UHGV virus genome: UHGV-0087644
Source: a virus
DNA: 13,730 nt
Strand: one strand, 5' to 3'
The notes under the pieces: model-generated
Databases searched by the model: none
Told to the model about the DNA's origin: nothing
The model's input: only the letters and a program-made list of their open reading frames with translations
In this document: in pieces, positions 3,838 to 8,509 of the stretch
Layout: every line of letters begins with the position of its first letter
How positions within the stretch are numbered: position 1 is the first letter of the stretch
Made by a program: the position numbers and the translations under genes

Positions 3838-4806
3838 TTAGTAGGTTATTTTTGTTGCGAATACTTCGCCTTTTACGATGGCTGTTATGATATTTTTAGC
3901 AACATCTTCTGATGCGCCAACCTTGATAAGGTCAGCAAGTATTTTGTTATTTACTTCTTTCCGGTGAGCTTTATCCTTTGCTCTACGCTCTTCTTCGTCC
4001 TTGATTCTTTTTCCTTCTGCTATTCTGGCTTGCTCTTTTGCTTCAGCCTCGCGCCGGATTCGTTCAGCCTCCTCCTGTGCTTTTCGGCGTTCTGCTTCAA
4101 TTGCCGCCTGCTTTTCTCTTTCAGCTCGTTCTGCTGCCTCTTTTGCTTCGCGCTGTGCTCGTTGCTCGGCTTCAATGCGTTCACGCTCTGCACGTTCCGC
4201 TGCGGCCTTAGCTTCTGCTTCTCGCCTTGCTGCTGCTTCAATTTCGGCTTTTGCCTTTGCTTCGGCTTCTGCTCTGGCTTTCTCTTCAGCTTCTCTTTTT
4301 AAGCGTTCTTCATACTCTCGCTTTTCCTGCTCCGCTTTGAGTCTTGCCTCTTCTCTTTGGCGGTCAAATTCGCGATCCATCAAAATAGCTATTTCATGGT
4401 CAGACTCAATTTGCTTTGCGAGAGCTTCAGCTGCTGCCTTAGCTTCTTCTTCGGCTTTAATCCGTGCCTGTTCCTCCTCATAATCAGTAAGAGGCTGGCG
4501 CGCCTTGGCTTTCAGTTCATCAAGGCGATCGCGCACTGTCTTGCGGTTGGCATCAATTAGCTTTGGAATTTCCTTCAGTTCAGCAACAAGGTCTTTGCCA
4601 AGACCATCGAGATATGTTTTCGTCTGCGCAACTTTATACGCCAGAGAAGCGATCTCCTTTCTGCCCTTTGCCGTTGTGATATCAGGCACAAAGGACATAA
4701 CTTCACGTTCAACCCTTTGAAGGATTTCTTCAATCTGGTCGGCAGACTGAAATACAGTCATTGCATTTGCTTTTTCAATAACAACTAAATCTGTTACTTC
4801 ACTCAT
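3838..4806 (-). CDS. coiled-coil protein with long E/R/K/A-rich helical segment, function unknown
   Basis: 322-aa track ORF; ATG 4806 with SD GGAGG; folded-looking N-terminal about 110 aa, then about 160 aa of charged low-complexity helix (EAEAKAKAEIEAAARREAEAKAAAERAERE...), then short C-terminal domain ending KITY. Confidence 0.7.
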   Translation of the reverse strand: MSEVTDLVVIEKANAMTVFQSADQIEEILQRVEREVMSFVPDITTAKGRKEIASLAYKVAQTKTYLDGLGKDLVAELKEIPKLIDANRKTVRDRLDELKAKARQPLTDYEEEQARIKAEEEAKAAAEALAKQIESDHEIAILMDREFDRQREEARLKAEQEKREYEERLKREAEEKARAEAEAKAKAEIEAAARREAEAKAAAERAERERIEAEQRAQREAKEAAERAEREKQAAIEAERRKAQEEAERIRREAEAKEQARIAEGKRIKDEEERRAKDKAHRKEVNNKILADLIKVGASEDVAKNIITAIVKGEVFATKITY

Positions 4807-5428: not shown

Positions 5429-5629
5429 TCAGGCAGCCTTGTTATTCTGTTTACCAAGTTCTCTGGCAATCATTGCCGTCGTTCGTATTGCCCATTTATC
5501 GACATATTTCCCATCTTCCATTACAGGAAACATTTCTTCAGGCTTAACCATGCATTCCGATTGCAGCTTGCATCCATTGCATCGCTTGAATTGTCCACAC
5601 CATTGATTTTTATCAATAGTCGTAGTCAT
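5429..5629 (-). CDS. ral: Ral-like restriction-alleviation protein
   Basis: 66-aa track ORF MTTTIDKNQWCGQFKRCNGCKLQSECMVKPEEMFPVMEDGKYVDKWAIRTTAMIARELGKQNNKAA; matches my recollection of lambda Ral (same length, same N-terminus). Confidence 0.6.
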   Translation of the reverse strand: MTTTIDKNQWCGQFKRCNGCKLQSECMVKPEEMFPVMEDGKYVDKWAIRTTAMIARELGKQNNKAA

Positions 5630-5842: not shown

Positions 5843-6025
5843 TCAGCGTACCTCTACTCCTGATGCGCCTCCATCGGGGTCAGGCGACCCATTAAAAGAC
5901 TTTCTGTGCTGAATTTCGTAACGAAGCGTCTTAATCGAAACGTCCACGGCATCGGCAAAACTGATGCCTTCTTCATTGGCCAGTTCCTGAACTACTCTTT
6001 TCAGTTCATTGTCCAAATTTTCCAT
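5843..6025 (-). CDS. hypothetical small protein (60 aa)
   Basis: Track ORF 5843-6049 trimmed to ATG 6025, preceded by AGGGGTGAGGG; MENLDNELKRVVQELANEEGISFADAVDVSIKTLRYEIQ... Confidence 0.45.
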   Translation of the reverse strand: MENLDNELKRVVQELANEEGISFADAVDVSIKTLRYEIQHRKSFNGSPDPDGGASGVEVR

Positions 6026-6100
6026 ACCCTCACCCCTTTGTTTATTCACCGCAGGCCACTCGACCCGCTCGATTCGTTCTGTGCGTAATGCTTGCGCCGA

Positions 6101-6259
6101 TCAGACACCCCAAACTCTGAACCACCAACGAAGAAACATGACGACTGGCGGGGTAGACAGAAGAATGGCCGCATTGATAAGAAGAATGGCCGCAGTGATA
6201 AGCAGACCCAAAATGACCCCCTGCACTACGACCGGGAGTTTTTCATACAGTTTTTTCAT
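6101..6259 (-). CDS. small single-pass membrane peptide (52 aa)
   Basis: Not in track; SD AAGGAG 5 nt before ATG 6259; MKKLYEKLPVVVQGVILGLLITAAILLINAAILLSTPPVVMFLRWWFRVWGV has one hydrophobic helix; contains an in-frame 21-bp tandem duplication. Confidence 0.4.
   Translation of the reverse strand: MKKLYEKLPVVVQGVILGLLITAAILLINAAILLSTPPVVMFLRWWFRVWGV
6160..6201. repeat. 2 x 21-bp tandem direct repeat (one mismatch) inside the membrane-peptide ORF
   Basis: GAAGAATGGCCGCATTGATAA / GAAGAATGGCCGCAGTGATAA; in-frame, encoding duplicated LITAAIL/LINAAIL heptads. Confidence 0.6.
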
Positions 6260-6261
6260 GG

Positions 6262-6603
6262 CTACTCCTTAAGAAGGCGCTCAAGGAATGCGCCATTACA
6301 GTCAATTACATCGATGATCTCTTTGGCTAATGAATCGATATCGTCGCTCGATTCGAAGTCATCCTGTGGGATGTAAAAGCCACCCTCAGTTTTAAACATA
6401 ATTTCCTTGACGGTTAATGCTGCAACCTCATACATAAAGCCATAAACAATGCGTCGAGGGGTGTTATACCTGAGTCCGAGGATCTTTAATTTTTCTGACT
6501 CCTGAGTCAGCTGGTCGTATGCCTTTACCAGCTCCGCTATCAGTCCCTTTTTCAGCTCACCACGCAGTACGTACATCCCGTTAGCCGTTTTATTTTCCAT
6601 CAC
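6262..6603 (-). CDS. hypothetical protein (113 aa)
   Basis: Track ORF; start overlaps upstream stop (6600-6603); no motif recognised. Confidence 0.55.
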   Translation of the reverse strand: MMENKTANGMYVLRGELKKGLIAELVKAYDQLTQESEKLKILGLRYNTPRRIVYGFMYEVAALTVKEIMFKTEGGFYIPQDDFESSDDIDSLAKEIIDVIDCNGAFLERLLKE

Positions 6604-6764
6604 CGAACCTCACTCGCTGTTACTTTGAAATATTGCCGCCGGGCATCGCGTATCTTCTCCAGCTCGCAGTTCTTCGCTGACTGGTGATACTTGCTGATGT
6701 GGCAGACCGGAGTGCGTGGATCGAAGTCACGACCGCATACCGGGCACTTGATGCTGTTCTTCAT
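6600..6764 (-). CDS. small zinc-ribbon protein (54 aa)
   Basis: Track ORF 6600-6821 trimmed to ATG 6764, preceded by GAGGTGG; MKNSIKCPVCGRDFDPRTPVCHISKYH has a CxxC...C..H arrangement. Confidence 0.5.
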   Translation of the reverse strand: MKNSIKCPVCGRDFDPRTPVCHISKYHQSAKNCELEKIRDARRQYFKVTASEVR

Positions 6765-6874
6765 GGGCCACCTCAGATTAATGCGATGGATTTGCCCTTC
6801 GTTTTCTGGCGACCAACACAAGTCACACCCATTTCACTACGTGGCTTGCGGTAGTAAATTATATTTGTTCAGAC

Positions 6875-6897
6875 AATAAAAAACCCACCGAAGTGGG
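6875..6897 (-). terminator. rho-independent terminator candidate (minus strand; tL1-like position after the first gene downstream of N)
   Basis: 5-bp GC stem CCCAC/GTGGG with CGAA loop (6884-6897), abutting the stop of the upstream ORF, followed on the minus transcript by a U-run (plus-strand ATAAAAAA at 6876-6883). Confidence 0.45.
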
Positions 6898-7242
6898 CTA
6901 TGACCATTTTTTATTTGGATTTCGTTGGTGAGCGTGATTAACAACTCTGTGCATTACATCCTCATATTTTTCATCTTCAATTTTTTCGACATCGCGAGGA
7001 AATGGTGTTGCTAATGCTTTGTCAACTTTGTCCATTGGTTCTTCATTAATCTTATATTCAGGACCGTCATCTATAGCATTAAATCCAGGTGTTACACCGT
7101 TTTTTAATGCATATGCTATCCTTTTTTCCCATCTCGCTATTCTCCTCCTGTCTCGAGATGTAAGACCTCTATCAGATACTTTTCTGTTTTGTCCGCGGTC
7201 AGGATTAACATAAATAGTCTTTTTCACCATAAGCATACTCAA
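6898..7242 (-). CDS. hypothetical protein with arginine-rich N-terminal region (114 aa)
   Basis: Track ORF; start overlaps N stop (ATGA); SRDRRRIARWEKRIAYALKNG is basic; followed directly by a terminator. Confidence 0.5.
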   Translation of the reverse strand: MSMLMVKKTIYVNPDRGQNRKVSDRGLTSRDRRRIARWEKRIAYALKNGVTPGFNAIDDGPEYKINEEPMDKVDKALATPFPRDVEKIEDEKYEDVMHRVVNHAHQRNPNKKWS

Positions 7243-7544
7243 TAAGCACCGTACGGTAGTTTACTGTACAATTTTATTTTTTGGACTGCATGTATTTTGT
7301 TTCCTAACGGGTTTGAATCTTTGTAATAAATACTTCTATTTTTTCGAACGACTTCTTCTTTCTTCTTGCAGCAAAGGCTTCCTAGTGATGCTGCTTTGTC
7401 TGCTCTGACGCAACCAGAGAGCTTTAGCGCAATTTTTCGCGCCAGTGCTTCATTACTGCGTCGCTCGGCAATAAGTTCTGCTCTGCGAGCTTTGTAGCGG
7501 CTTTTTGCCGTACCTTTGGATTCTTTCCAGACAATGGTTACCAT
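7239..7544 (-). CDS. N: N-like transcription antitermination protein (phi21-type arginine-rich motif)
   Basis: Track ORF 7239-7574 trimmed to ATG 7544 (SD AGGAG); N-terminus MVTIVWKESKGTAKSRYKARRAELIAERR matches the phi21 N arginine-rich RNA-binding peptide as I recall it; nutL lies upstream. Confidence 0.75.
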   Translation of the reverse strand: MVTIVWKESKGTAKSRYKARRAELIAERRSNEALARKIALKLSGCVRADKAASLGSLCCKKKEEVVRKNRSIYYKDSNPLGNKIHAVQKIKLYSKLPYGAY

Positions 7545-7654
7545 AATGGTCTCCTTTAAGTGGCTTTGGCGCATGACGCGTCGAGGTGCTTATCTTCTCG
7601 ATCGCTGTCTTGCAGCTGCAATTCGCGCCATCCCCAAAACCACTCAAGTTCTGG

Positions 7655-7834: not shown

Positions 7835-7860
7835 AAATAAAAAAGGGGCGAAAGCCCCTT
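7835..7860 (-). terminator. rho-independent terminator for the cI transcript
   Basis: Stem AAGGGGC/GCCCCTT (7843-7849 / 7854-7860) with GAAA loop, followed on the minus strand by UUUUAUUU; overlaps the cI stop codon. Confidence 0.55.
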
Positions 7861-8509
7861 AAGGAAGGTTTGCTAGCTTGGCATCAACGACAACGCCAAT
7901 GATTTTACAGTTCCCATTGATTTCAATCATTGGGTATTGTGGATTGAGTGGTTTCAGGAATTTTCTACCGGCATCAATAACTAACTTTTTGAATGTCGCC
8001 TCGTTTTCCCCTTCAAGTTTGGCGACTACCAGCTTTCCATTACGTGGTTCGACTTCTGGGTCGACGAGAATAATCATCCCCTCAGGAATACTCAGTCCTG
8101 CCGGGGCAGTCATTGAATCGCCTTTAACGTCGAGCCAAAAAGAGTCTTCAGAACAATCTACCGTTGTGTCGTACCAGTTATCTATTGCACGCCTATGATA
8201 TGGCTCTACAGCTTCCATCCAACATCCTGCGCTTACCCAACTAATTAGAGGATACGAACCTCTTGGATCATGCCTGCTGTGATAGGCAATGTTTGAAAGA
8301 CTATCCTCTCCTTTCAACAGGTAATCAGGGGAGCACTGCAAAGCCTTGGCTAAGGCCAATAGGTTTTCGCCATTGGGCTCAGTTTCAGATCGCTCCCATT
8401 GGGAAATAGCAACATTAGACACGCCAACCATCTTGCCAAGGGCAGCCTGCCTAATCTTGAGTTCTTTTCTGCGAGCGCGAATACGCTCACCCATCAGTTG
8501 TGTATTCAT
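7859..8509 (-). CDS. cI: CI-type prophage repressor (HTH + S24 LexA-like peptidase domain)
   Basis: 216-aa track ORF; N-terminal HTH (QAALGKMVGVSNVAISQWER); C-terminal FWLDVKGDSMTAPAGLSIPEGMIILVDP...ATFKKL...FLKPLNPQYPMIE closely parallels the lambda CI C-terminal domain. Confidence 0.9.
   Translation of the reverse strand: MNTQLMGERIRARRKELKIRQAALGKMVGVSNVAISQWERSETEPNGENLLALAKALQCSPDYLLKGEDSLSNIAYHSRHDPRGSYPLISWVSAGCWMEAVEPYHRRAIDNWYDTTVDCSEDSFWLDVKGDSMTAPAGLSIPEGMIILVDPEVEPRNGKLVVAKLEGENEATFKKLVIDAGRKFLKPLNPQYPMIEINGNCKIIGVVVDAKLANLP

Follow-up and report, generated by a model that had tools for sequence, protein, structure and literature searches.

Three small, tightly packed genes in the early-left operon of a lambdoid prophage are probably separately mobile accessory genes

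The window, which is the whole 13,730-nt stretch of UHGV virus genome UHGV-0087644 that was analysed, carries three small ORFs on its minus strand, where an earlier sequence-only reading had placed them. The first, a zinc-finger (Zn) gene of 54 aa (6600..6764; ATG at 6764, stop TGA at 6600-6602), has GAGGTGG, read from the sequence as a Shine-Dalgarno motif, 5 nt upstream of its ATG. It is followed by an acidic orphan gene (6262..6600; TAG stop at 6262-6264) and by the gene of a single-pass membrane micro-protein of 52 aa (TM gene; 6101..6259, ATG at 6259). The second ORF has two possible starts: the ATG at 6600, which is the choice of PGAP and other gene callers, yields 112 aa and shares its A with the Zn stop TGA in a one-base overlap (TGATG), whereas the GTG at 6603 yields the 113-aa protein first described and a four-base overlap with the Zn gene (GTGA). 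The TM gene begins with an ATG 2 nt past the TAG that ends the 112-aa gene; the AAGGAG 5 nt upstream of this ATG consists of the final sense codons (AAG GAG) of that upstream gene. The tight packing read from the letters, with its overlaps and an AAGGAG inside the upstream gene, is thus borne out. It also makes the predicted translational coupling plausible; however, this coupling is not specific to the trio, because in other loci that were read (L009, L013, L020) the next gene has its ribosome-binding site or start codon within the 3' tail of the Zn gene, and it would be a by-product of end-to-end packing.

The ORFs are real genes, as had been assumed. A codon-frame log-odds score, trained on the recognisable genes of the window, is highest in the annotated frame of all three, at 0.49 for the 112-aa gene (-0.62/-0.43 in the other frames), 0.32 for the TM gene (-0.36/-0.22) and 0.02 for the Zn gene (-0.28/-0.24), and comparison of diverged alleles reveals purifying selection in the TM and Zn genes. 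Two plus-strand ORFs (6009-6272 and 6092-6376) were rejected as genes, being open by virtue of the A-poor minus-strand TM coding sequence; because the coding strand is A-poor, at least five of the six frames are open over the TM gene; past this gene, the relic of a Zn tail (6046..6102) accounts for an open +1 frame. Rfam gave no match in the window, and nothing was found in the literature on any of the three genes.

The array is set in the early-left (PL) operon of a lambdoid prophage, on the PL strand, with the minus-strand order repressor, N, Nun, terminator, triad, 60-aa gene, ral, ..., ERF, Abc2. The genes of the window comprise a Peptidase_S24 repressor, an N-like gene, Ral (1.6e-48), ERF, Abc2, Cro, CII, O and a DnaB-like helicase, together with a Nun-like gene whose DNA is 96-98% identical to those of mEp235 and HK022. 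After the Nun-like gene and upstream of the triad lies an intrinsic-terminator-like hairpin with a T-run (6882..6899, minus strand), and a crude consensus scan found no sigma-70-like site between this terminator and the Zn ATG. Given that the promoter scan was of this crude kind, the trio may be expressed in lysogens. On the other side of the triad, a gene encoding a 60-aa acidic protein (5843..6025, minus strand, ATG 6025) accompanies it in all complete triad loci, within one conserved block of about 1.07 kb. The ral gene lies 470 bp downstream, and in related loci, which use the same N-to-cIII/kil slot, a kil/cIII pair is found further down the homologous operon. The array therefore occupies the place of lambdoid PL-operon accessory genes, on the PL strand between an N-type antiterminator and cIII/kil/recombination genes. 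In its slot, strand, small gene size, tight packing and mosaic exchange between phages, the trio resembles the PL accessory genes of lambda and P22 (ral, sieB, orf28 and ea10 in lambda), but it has no sequence similarity to any such gene of lambda, P22 or mEp235, the last of which carries a hypothetical 207-aa gene in the N-cIII slot. Among phage records, DNA searches found the genes only in Wanchaivirus PDP110P2.

The Zn gene is located just after N, or another upstream gene, in many enterobacterial prophages, and encodes a basic protein (pI 9.5). Its codons 1-47 form a core that is kept across many enterobacterial lambdoid prophages (dN/dS about 0.15-0.18), and its final ~7-11 codons form a lineage-specific tail containing the ribosome-binding site of the next gene; among the homologues P0015-P0023, the core is invariant and the tails differ. 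The putative ligand pattern, C7-x2-C10-x11-H22-x4-H27, is C2H2-like with one CxxC knuckle only; C10, H22 and H27 are invariant in 10 Zn homologues, and C7 is kept in nine of them. The label "zinc ribbon" given in the sequence-only reading is too loose, since a zinc ribbon has two CxxC (or CxxH) knuckles on two beta-hairpins and the Zn protein has one (C7, C10), its non-CxxC ligands (C21/H22 and H27) lying on a helix-forming stretch. A classical C2H2 finger combines C-x2-4-C-x12-H-x3-5-H spacing with a beta-beta-alpha fold. The Zn protein resembles it in its C-x2-C-x11-H-x4-H spacing and in a modelled beta-hairpin followed by a helix, but its 11-residue spacer is one short of 12, and it is predicted to have just one finger, after which comes a long basic helix. 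The AF2 model (pLDDT 67) places helices after the hairpin, and a Foldseek search with it returned nothing at E < 1, the top of the list being mostly C2H2 fingers, all at E > 1. Pfam matches to zf-Di19 (21.3 bits vs cut-off 27.5) and zf-C2HC_2 (15.4 vs cut-off 27) stayed below the gathering threshold, a PDB sequence search gave weak matches to designed consensus C2H2 fingers, and a Citrobacter homologue bears the UniRef label "C2H2-type domain-containing protein". With phrog_20899 (2.6e-7), a PHROG of unknown function, the sub-threshold zinc-finger matches were the only ones obtained for the trio in NCBIfam, Pfam, PHROGs and PADLOC. None of the three proteins matched a PADLOC-DB v2 defence model at E up to 1, or any known defence, toxin or Kil family.

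The 112-aa protein is acidic (pI 4.8) and predicted to be helical. It had no match in Pfam, PHROGs, PADLOC or NCBIfam or in a PDB sequence search, and no relative among the GTDB species representatives; a word-indexed search recovered only ~99%-identity clusters among 5.8e9 clusters, and a full HMMER scan of 1.84e9 (1.84 billion) representatives yielded no real relative. The sole extra HMMER match, a repetitive 719-aa protein (P0024), was dismissed as spurious, as it matches via a DGYRYKTVRRIRYR repeat. An AF2 single-sequence model (pLDDT 53) was too poor for a fold search. The ORF is intact in nine compared copies, which show seven substitutions (five non-synonymous and two synonymous, too few for a selection test) and no indels, and the exact protein occurs on several hundred contigs. 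In the loci examined, the gene always has the Zn gene upstream and the TM gene downstream, which is a point against independence, and a functional tie may exist for the 112-aa gene.

The TM peptide has 52 aa here and 45 aa in the commonest allele elsewhere, the seven additional residues of its membrane helix being supplied by two copies of a 21-nt tandem repeat (6159..6200, minus strand), identified by TRF, a repeat search and alignments. Its maximum Kyte-Doolittle 19-residue mean is 2.76, and its pI of 10.4 gives it a charge opposite to that of the 112-aa protein. Neither Pfam nor PHROGs holds a matching family, with no Pfam match at E up to 1, including Lambda_Kil/KilR (PF06301 / PF27398); a PDB sequence search gave no match, and the TM-gene pattern was not found among the GTDB species representatives. 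Homologues (P0003-P0014) are nevertheless available for comparison: the C-terminal part, STPP(V/I)VMFLRWWF(R/K)VWGV, is identical in four diverged intact alleles, and dN/dS is 0.05-0.15 between alleles that are 27% apart in DNA. The peptide is therefore conserved at the protein level, and the TM gene is a genuine gene.

A G5 run in codons 13-15 of the TM gene (6217..6221, minus strand; alignment and translations), missing from the diverged TM alleles, is the site of independent frameshift alleles (G4, G6 and GGGGGGTGGGG) in otherwise near-identical copies. On public contigs, the TM frameshift product occurs on roughly 275 (G6 on about 234, G4 on about 33) and the intact gene on roughly 400, and the gene is frameshifted in roughly 40% of public triad copies; in the frameshifted loci that were read, the Zn and 112-aa genes are intact. 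Long-read sequencing error was rejected as the source of these run lengths, since the same alleles turn up repeatedly, in independently made assemblies and on hundreds of contigs. In two complete genomes inspected, where the TM gene is frameshifted, PGAP left it unannotated. The TM micro-protein is probably mildly toxic, given its repeated knock-out at the G-run in lysogens. With ~45-52 aa and a place in the PL operon, it resembles lambda Kil, Rac KilR and small single-pass phage exclusion proteins, and the fact that prophages have inactivated it again and again would suit a toxic peptide of the Kil/KilR type; however, it differs from Kil in its strong membrane helix. Lambda orf28 was rejected as a counterpart, being a 28-aa acidic soluble peptide and not a membrane protein.

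Alignment by blastn of the window with two Zn-only phages (L009, L010) revealed that a 537-bp segment (6100..6636, minus strand) is missing from the latter, in which the equivalent of window 6775..6637 joins directly to that of 6099..6022. Relative to these phages, the segment falls in the 3' end of the Zn gene and comprises a new Zn tail plus the 112-aa and TM genes. The interval that separates the TM gene from its downstream neighbour contains a relic, now non-coding, of an alternative Zn C-terminal coding sequence (6046..6102, minus strand; ending in DRRKHYAQNESSGSSGLR and a stop codon), and the matching tail is the live C-terminus of P0019, P0021, P0022 and the L009 Zn gene. A comparison of upstream sequences revealed a second relic, the 3' end of an N antiterminator gene (6773..6849, minus strand; encoding KPRSEMGVTCVGRQKTKGKSIALI and a stop codon), which came along with the Zn module; its homologous counterpart in elppa10 and MEI008 forms the end of a live N gene. 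A sharp module joint is visible in L008, where the 112-aa gene differs at 2/339 nt and the adjoining TM gene at 37/135 nt. Despite this allele swap, L008 retains a TM gene beside the 112-aa gene, which is a further point against independence. The 537-bp cassette is like phage morons in being present or absent among relatives and in having recognisable insertion scars. A strict moron, however, brings a promoter and a terminator of its own, whereas a crude consensus scan found neither promoter nor terminator flanking 6100-6636, and the cassette would depend on operon read-through and translational coupling.

Gene order is fixed in every locus that has all three genes, but the genes also occur apart from one another. 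The Zn gene was found alone in 10 fetched loci (L009, L010, L016-L023), the TM gene alone in four (L011, L012, L014, L027), and the Zn and TM genes without the 112-aa gene in two (L013, L015), counts that are not an unbiased census because the loci were retrieved via protein-cluster representatives. In L013, the Zn-TM pair has an ATGA overlap, and in L011 and L012 the TM gene adjoins a divergent sieB. The sequence-only reading had proposed that the trio works as a single unit, like small effector or abortive-infection modules, and had named independent occurrence as the observation that would refute it; independent occurrence is what the loci show. Co-occurrence and co-inheritance, by which a multi-gene module is recognised, are broken by these separate loci and by the TM frameshifts. 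A type II toxin-antitoxin pair, with the 112-aa protein as antitoxin and the TM peptide as toxin, was also rejected: in such systems the toxin never occurs without its cognate antitoxin, and six loci (L011-L015 and L027) carry the TM gene but no 112-aa gene.

With moderate confidence, we regard the array as three separately mobile accessory genes in the hypervariable N/Nun-ral/cIII/kil slot of the PL operon, and not as one machine. In this lineage, the 537-bp segment with the 112-aa and TM genes lies within the Zn tail, and the old tail that it displaced is left as a relic. Transcription would occur only after induction or infection, through N-antiterminated read-through from PL; early lytic expression fits better than prophage-expressed defence, because the genes lie downstream of a terminator and have no promoter-like site. 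Translation would be coupled simply through end-to-end packing, with each protein acting separately in host takeover. Judging from composition, charge, motif and genomic position, the basic C2H2-like finger may bind nucleic acid, and the TM micro-protein may enter the inner membrane and perturb membrane function. The acidic helical 112-aa protein, from its composition, charge and position, may bind and block a host protein in the manner of an anti-defence factor.

A further reading, offered tentatively as an unlikely one, is that the Zn gene after N is a conserved landing pad whose 3' tail acts as a recombination hotspot for coupled cargo, and that the TM micro-protein cargo represents a new toxic membrane-effector family, switched off in lysogens by G-run slippage; three independent TM frameshift alleles are known, one on > 200 contigs. 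Because the 537-bp indel holds exactly the 112-aa and TM genes, these two could instead form a cassette in which the soluble partner targets or regulates the membrane peptide, with the zinc finger as a mere neighbour. This is doubtful: even though the TM gene always follows the 112-aa gene immediately (with a different TM allele in L008), the AAGGAG/ATG spacing suits coupling and the two proteins are oppositely charged (pI 4.8 vs 10.4), the TM gene does without the 112-aa gene in six loci, and about 40% of copies pair an intact 112-aa gene with a frameshifted TM gene, in one lineage on > 200 contigs. Moreover, Zn and TM genes are directly coupled in L013 and L015, so that the 112-aa gene may have been inserted between them later, rather than being the partner with which the TM gene arrived.

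It is improbable that, in this lineage, the 112-aa ORF, the TM ORF or both are passengers, decaying or without function, that fill the space between useful genes as junk DNA, because the TM frame is under strong purifying selection across alleles, and the 112-aa ORF is uninterrupted in all copies, has a coding score as strong as bona fide genes and recurs as an exact protein on several hundred contigs; the points that would suit such decay are a 112-aa ORF with no homologue and too little variation to test selection, the frequent frameshifting of the TM gene, and the N-gene and Zn-tail relics, which make the region a patchwork of recombination scars. Very improbable, finally, is a stoichiometrically coupled effector or abortive-infection module that would join a sensor or nucleic-acid binder to an adaptor and a membrane-depolarising peptide. 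The start-stop overlaps with fixed gene order, the conserved TM peptide and, in L011 and L012, a TM gene adjacent to the known abortive-infection gene sieB would favour such a module, but it is already largely refuted by independent occurrence and is further opposed by the missing PADLOC match, by TM frameshifts in about 40% of copies, by Zn tails that elsewhere hold the start signals of unrelated downstream genes, and by the upstream terminator and absent promoter-like site, because of which expression in lysogens, where defence must act, is unlikely.

Collectively, tight start-stop overlaps among small phage genes are, alone, no mark of a functional system, and those in this array are best taken as scars of cassette insertion. 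As three separately mobile genes, the trio would be a set of ordinary swappable accessory genes whose importance lies mostly in annotation. It provides a clear example of module junctions within the 3' tail of a conserved small gene, a validated new family of membrane micro-proteins in the TM peptide, and, in the 112-aa product, an early protein, acidic and orphan, that could reasonably be considered for an anti-defence role. Should the TM peptide turn out to be toxic or to act in exclusion, the set of small lambdoid early-left effectors would grow by one.

Three real genes at 6101-6764 lie on the early-left (PL) operon strand behind a terminator, are of mosaic origin, and occur independently of one another in related loci. 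The window corresponds to the part of a lambdoid prophage that holds its immunity and early genes. Its minus strand carries a Peptidase_S24/HTH repressor (7859-8509), an N-like gene with a weak N_peptide match (7239-7574) and a Nun-like transcription-termination gene (6898-7242), whose DNA is 96-98% identical to the mEp235 and HK022 genes and which is directly followed by an intrinsic-terminator-like hairpin (6899-6882, minus). N-like and Nun-like genes are both present in this prophage, an arrangement also annotated in mEp235 and mEpX1; Nun is the factor by which HK022 excludes lambda. Downstream of the trio, also on the minus strand, are a gene for a 60-aa acidic protein (5843-6025, pI 4.6) without a family match and ral (5429-5629; Pfam Ral, 1.6e-48), beyond which ERF, Abc2, an HNH protein and an Ea22-like protein are encoded; the plus strand encodes Cro, CII, O, a DnaB-type helicase, NinB and NinX. 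The trio therefore occupies the accessory-gene slot of the PL operon, which in lambda holds sieB, orf28 and ral. A consensus scan of the interval from the terminator to the zinc-finger start codon gave no sigma-70-like site, and Rfam gave no match over the window. The PL operon also contains a 322-aa ORF (3838-4806, minus) without a Pfam match; at the matching position, elppa10, another carrier of the triad, has a 969-nt ORF for the hypothetical protein WP_000005785.1.

Reading of the ORFs bears out the three consecutive, tightly packed minus-strand genes that had been proposed from sequence. The zinc-finger gene, preceded by GAGGTGG, runs from its ATG at 6764 to a TGA at 6602-6600 and encodes 54 aa (MKNSIKCPVCGRDFDPRTPVCHISKYHQSAKNCELEKIRDARRQYFKVTASEVR). 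Its stop shares one A with the ATG at 6600 (TGATG) of the second gene, which ends at 6262 with ...CTT CTT AAG GAG TAG, and 2 bases past that stop the membrane gene starts at the ATG at 6259, encoding 52 aa (MKKLYEKLPVVVQGVILGLLITAAILLINAAILLSTPPVVMFLRWWFRVWGV). The second ORF exists as proposed, but its length is 112 aa with the ATG chosen by PGAP and other gene callers; the 113-aa form uses a GTG 3 bases upstream. A frame-specific codon log-odds score, trained on the recognisable genes of the window (known genes, 0.08-0.60), gave 0.49, 0.32 and 0.02 for the 112-aa, membrane and zinc-finger genes in their annotated frames, and -0.2 to -0.6 in other frames. Because the strand coding for the membrane peptide is A-poor, ~6100-6260 is open in at least five of six frames. 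Plus-strand ORFs of 87 and 94 aa within 6009-6376, over the membrane gene, were rejected as spurious, and a 73-aa TTG-started ORF (6600..6821), which would extend the zinc-finger protein N-terminally and crosses part of an N relic, is probably not real.

The first protein had been labelled a zinc ribbon, a label that its ligand pattern, C7-x2-C10-x11-H22-x4-H27, does not sustain; the most fitting description is one C2H2-like finger followed by a helical, basic tail (pI 9.5). Residues C10, H22 and H27 are invariant in 10 homologues and C7 is kept in 9 of them. The top Pfam matches, zf-Di19 and zf-C2HC_2, are sub-threshold, the top PDB sequence matches are designed consensus C2H2 fingers, and a Citrobacter homologue is labelled 'C2H2-type domain-containing protein' in UniRef. 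An AF2 model from a ten-sequence alignment (pLDDT 67) predicts a beta-hairpin followed by two helices, the first short and the C-terminal one long; Foldseek returned nothing significant for this model. Across the core (codons 1-43), comparison with the L016 type, a lone zinc-finger locus, gives a dN of 0.077 and a dS of 0.43-0.68, and closer relatives differ by 0 or 1 amino-acid change at dS 0.12-0.27. Residues 1-47 are common to all homologues, after which the sequences diverge.

The 112-aa protein is an orphan. No family match was found in Pfam, PHROG, PADLOC or NCBIfam, nor any match in PDB; its relatives among 5.8e9 clusters are solely clusters of ~99% identity, and a complete HMMER search of 1.84e9 representatives recovered only itself, bar one repeat protein rejected as spurious. 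The orphan is an acidic (pI 4.8), predicted helical protein whose AF2 model is poor (pLDDT 53). Across nine copies, its gene has no indels and just seven substitutions, of which five are non-synonymous and two synonymous.

The membrane gene is a genuine protein-coding gene. Its peptide has a clear membrane helix, as judged from a best 19-residue Kyte-Doolittle mean of 2.76. The sequence-only reading had made its proposal depend on conservation of this peptide as a protein, and such conservation is seen: diverged alleles (L008, L011, L013 and L014) differ from the window type at 29-37 of 135 nt and 7-9 of 45 residues, with dN ~0.08-0.12 and dS 0.9-1.5 or saturated, giving dN/dS of 0.05-0.15. 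The C-terminal part STPP(V/I)VMFLRWWF(R/K)VWGV occurs in all four diverged intact alleles. The only indels in ~1.07 kb of near-identical triad copies fall within this gene. One is a 21-nt tandem duplication (6159-6200, minus) that adds seven helix residues (TAAILLI/NAAILLS) and is present in the window and some relatives (52 aa) and absent from others (45 aa). In L011 and L012 (2430-3219), which lack the other two genes, the membrane gene lies just past a divergent sieB, 112 nt from the sieB start. sieB is an abortive-infection gene; a functional association is possible.

Curated collections contain little triad DNA: it is present in 3 of 5,426 complete E. coli genomes, 1 of 50,697 phage records (Wanchaivirus PDP110P2) and 3 IMG/VR contigs, and in none of the GTDB species-representative genomes. 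Several hundred contigs of a large assembly collection, mostly from E. coli and some from Salmonella, carry the 112-aa protein in its exact form or as close variants. Loci fetched through representatives of the zinc-finger and membrane protein clusters fall into four architectures: the complete triad (window, L001-L007, L028 and L029, with L008 cut at its 5' end), zinc finger and membrane gene without the 112-aa gene (L013 and L015), membrane gene alone (L011, L012, L014 and L027) and zinc finger alone (L009, L010 and L016-L023). This sampling proves that independent arrangements exist, and its locus counts are not true frequencies. Lone zinc-finger genes directly follow N or an HNH gene and precede at least five different unrelated genes. 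The proposal that the triad is one coupled effector or abortive-infection-type unit thus fails on co-occurrence, since it had itself named independent occurrence as decisive against it. The 60-aa gene is present in every complete triad locus; on co-occurrence, its claim to the block is as good as that of the three named genes.

Comparison with the zinc-finger-only loci L009 and L010 points to how the arrangement arose. The match runs from 6775 to 6637 and then straight to 6099-6022, so that the window has 537 extra bases (6100-6636), containing a new zinc-finger tail, the 112-aa gene and the membrane gene. A non-coding relic of an alternative zinc-finger C-terminus (6046-6102, minus; ..RRKHYAQNESSGSSGLR; DRRKHYAQNESSGSSGLR), which is the live tail in P0019, P0021, P0022 and L009 from zinc-finger-only phages, lies just past the membrane gene stop and explains the open +1 frame there; it marks the right edge of the insertion. 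Between the Nun terminator and the zinc-finger ATG, 8 nt from the latter, lies a relic of an N antiterminator gene that comprises its last 24 codons (6773-6849, minus; KPRSEMGVTCVGRQKTKGKSIALI*). The counterpart of this relic ends the live N gene in elppa10 and in the carrier MEI008, which shows the block to be an import from a phage with the zinc finger directly behind N. The tight coupling noted earlier is present but not special to the trio: in the three zinc-finger versions whose sequence was read, the tail contains the Shine-Dalgarno or start codon of the gene that follows (L009, GGGGTGAGGGTATG; L020, the following ATG 14 nt inside the gene; L013, stop and membrane gene start overlapping as ATGA), so that it is general to this junction. 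The 112-aa gene was not seen without the other two in the fetched loci, and a functional pair of the 112-aa and membrane proteins is conceivable but unlikely. Relative to the window, L008 has 2 changes in the 339 nt of the 112-aa gene (99.4% identical) and 37 in the 135 nt of the membrane gene (73% identical), which places a recombination joint exactly at the gene border. L008 (1-531) carries an L027-type membrane allele with its downstream 76-aa gene.

Among otherwise 97-100% identical copies, a G5 run in the membrane gene (6217-6221, minus) varies in length, and all three downstream frames are represented. The in-frame G5 is carried by the window, L004, L006, L007 and L029, G4 by PDP110P2 and L005, and G6 by MEI008, L028 and ETEC4091 (the last by matching length and identity); elppa10 has GGGGGGTGGGG at this position, and diverged alleles have no G-run. 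By exact look-up, the G6 and G4 frameshift products occur on ~234 and ~33 public contigs, and the in-frame 52-aa and 45-aa forms on ~265 and ~134; P0013, another frameshift product, is on 8. Homopolymer sequencing error was rejected because the same alleles recur in independent assemblies. The length variation could mean that a toxic gene is decaying or that slippage switches the gene on and off, and frequent loss is compatible with selection in lysogens against a mildly toxic peptide. That the 112-aa gene, the membrane gene or both are functionless passengers is improbable, with the frameshifts and the orphan's lack of relatives and scant variation on one side and the low dN/dS of the membrane gene on the other. 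A true three-part module, which the packing might suggest, is the least credible reading, as the genes are found independently and ~40% of triad copies retain the zinc-finger and 112-aa genes beside a dead membrane gene, arguing against obligate cooperation.

Collectively, the trio is probably a set of independent mosaic accessory genes with early read-through expression and separate roles in host takeover. The genes would be expressed solely after induction or infection, through N-antiterminated read-through, and their coupled translation may be a by-product of packing. Each protein would work separately: the basic zinc finger may bind nucleic acid, the acidic orphan may be a protein-binding inhibitor of the anti-defence type, and the membrane micro-protein may perturb the inner membrane. 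The trio resembles other small lambdoid early-left accessory genes (ral, orf28, ea10 and kil), and such genes tend to be members of small clusters and are exchanged from phage to phage (PMC9836094). Tests against defined defence, toxin-antitoxin, Kil/KilR and zinc-ribbon families revealed no membership. A strict moron has its own promoter and terminator, whereas the trio has neither by consensus scan and is therefore not one. The main value of these results lies in a corrected annotation and a validated family of membrane micro-proteins, and the trio is a caution against inferring function from start-stop overlaps.
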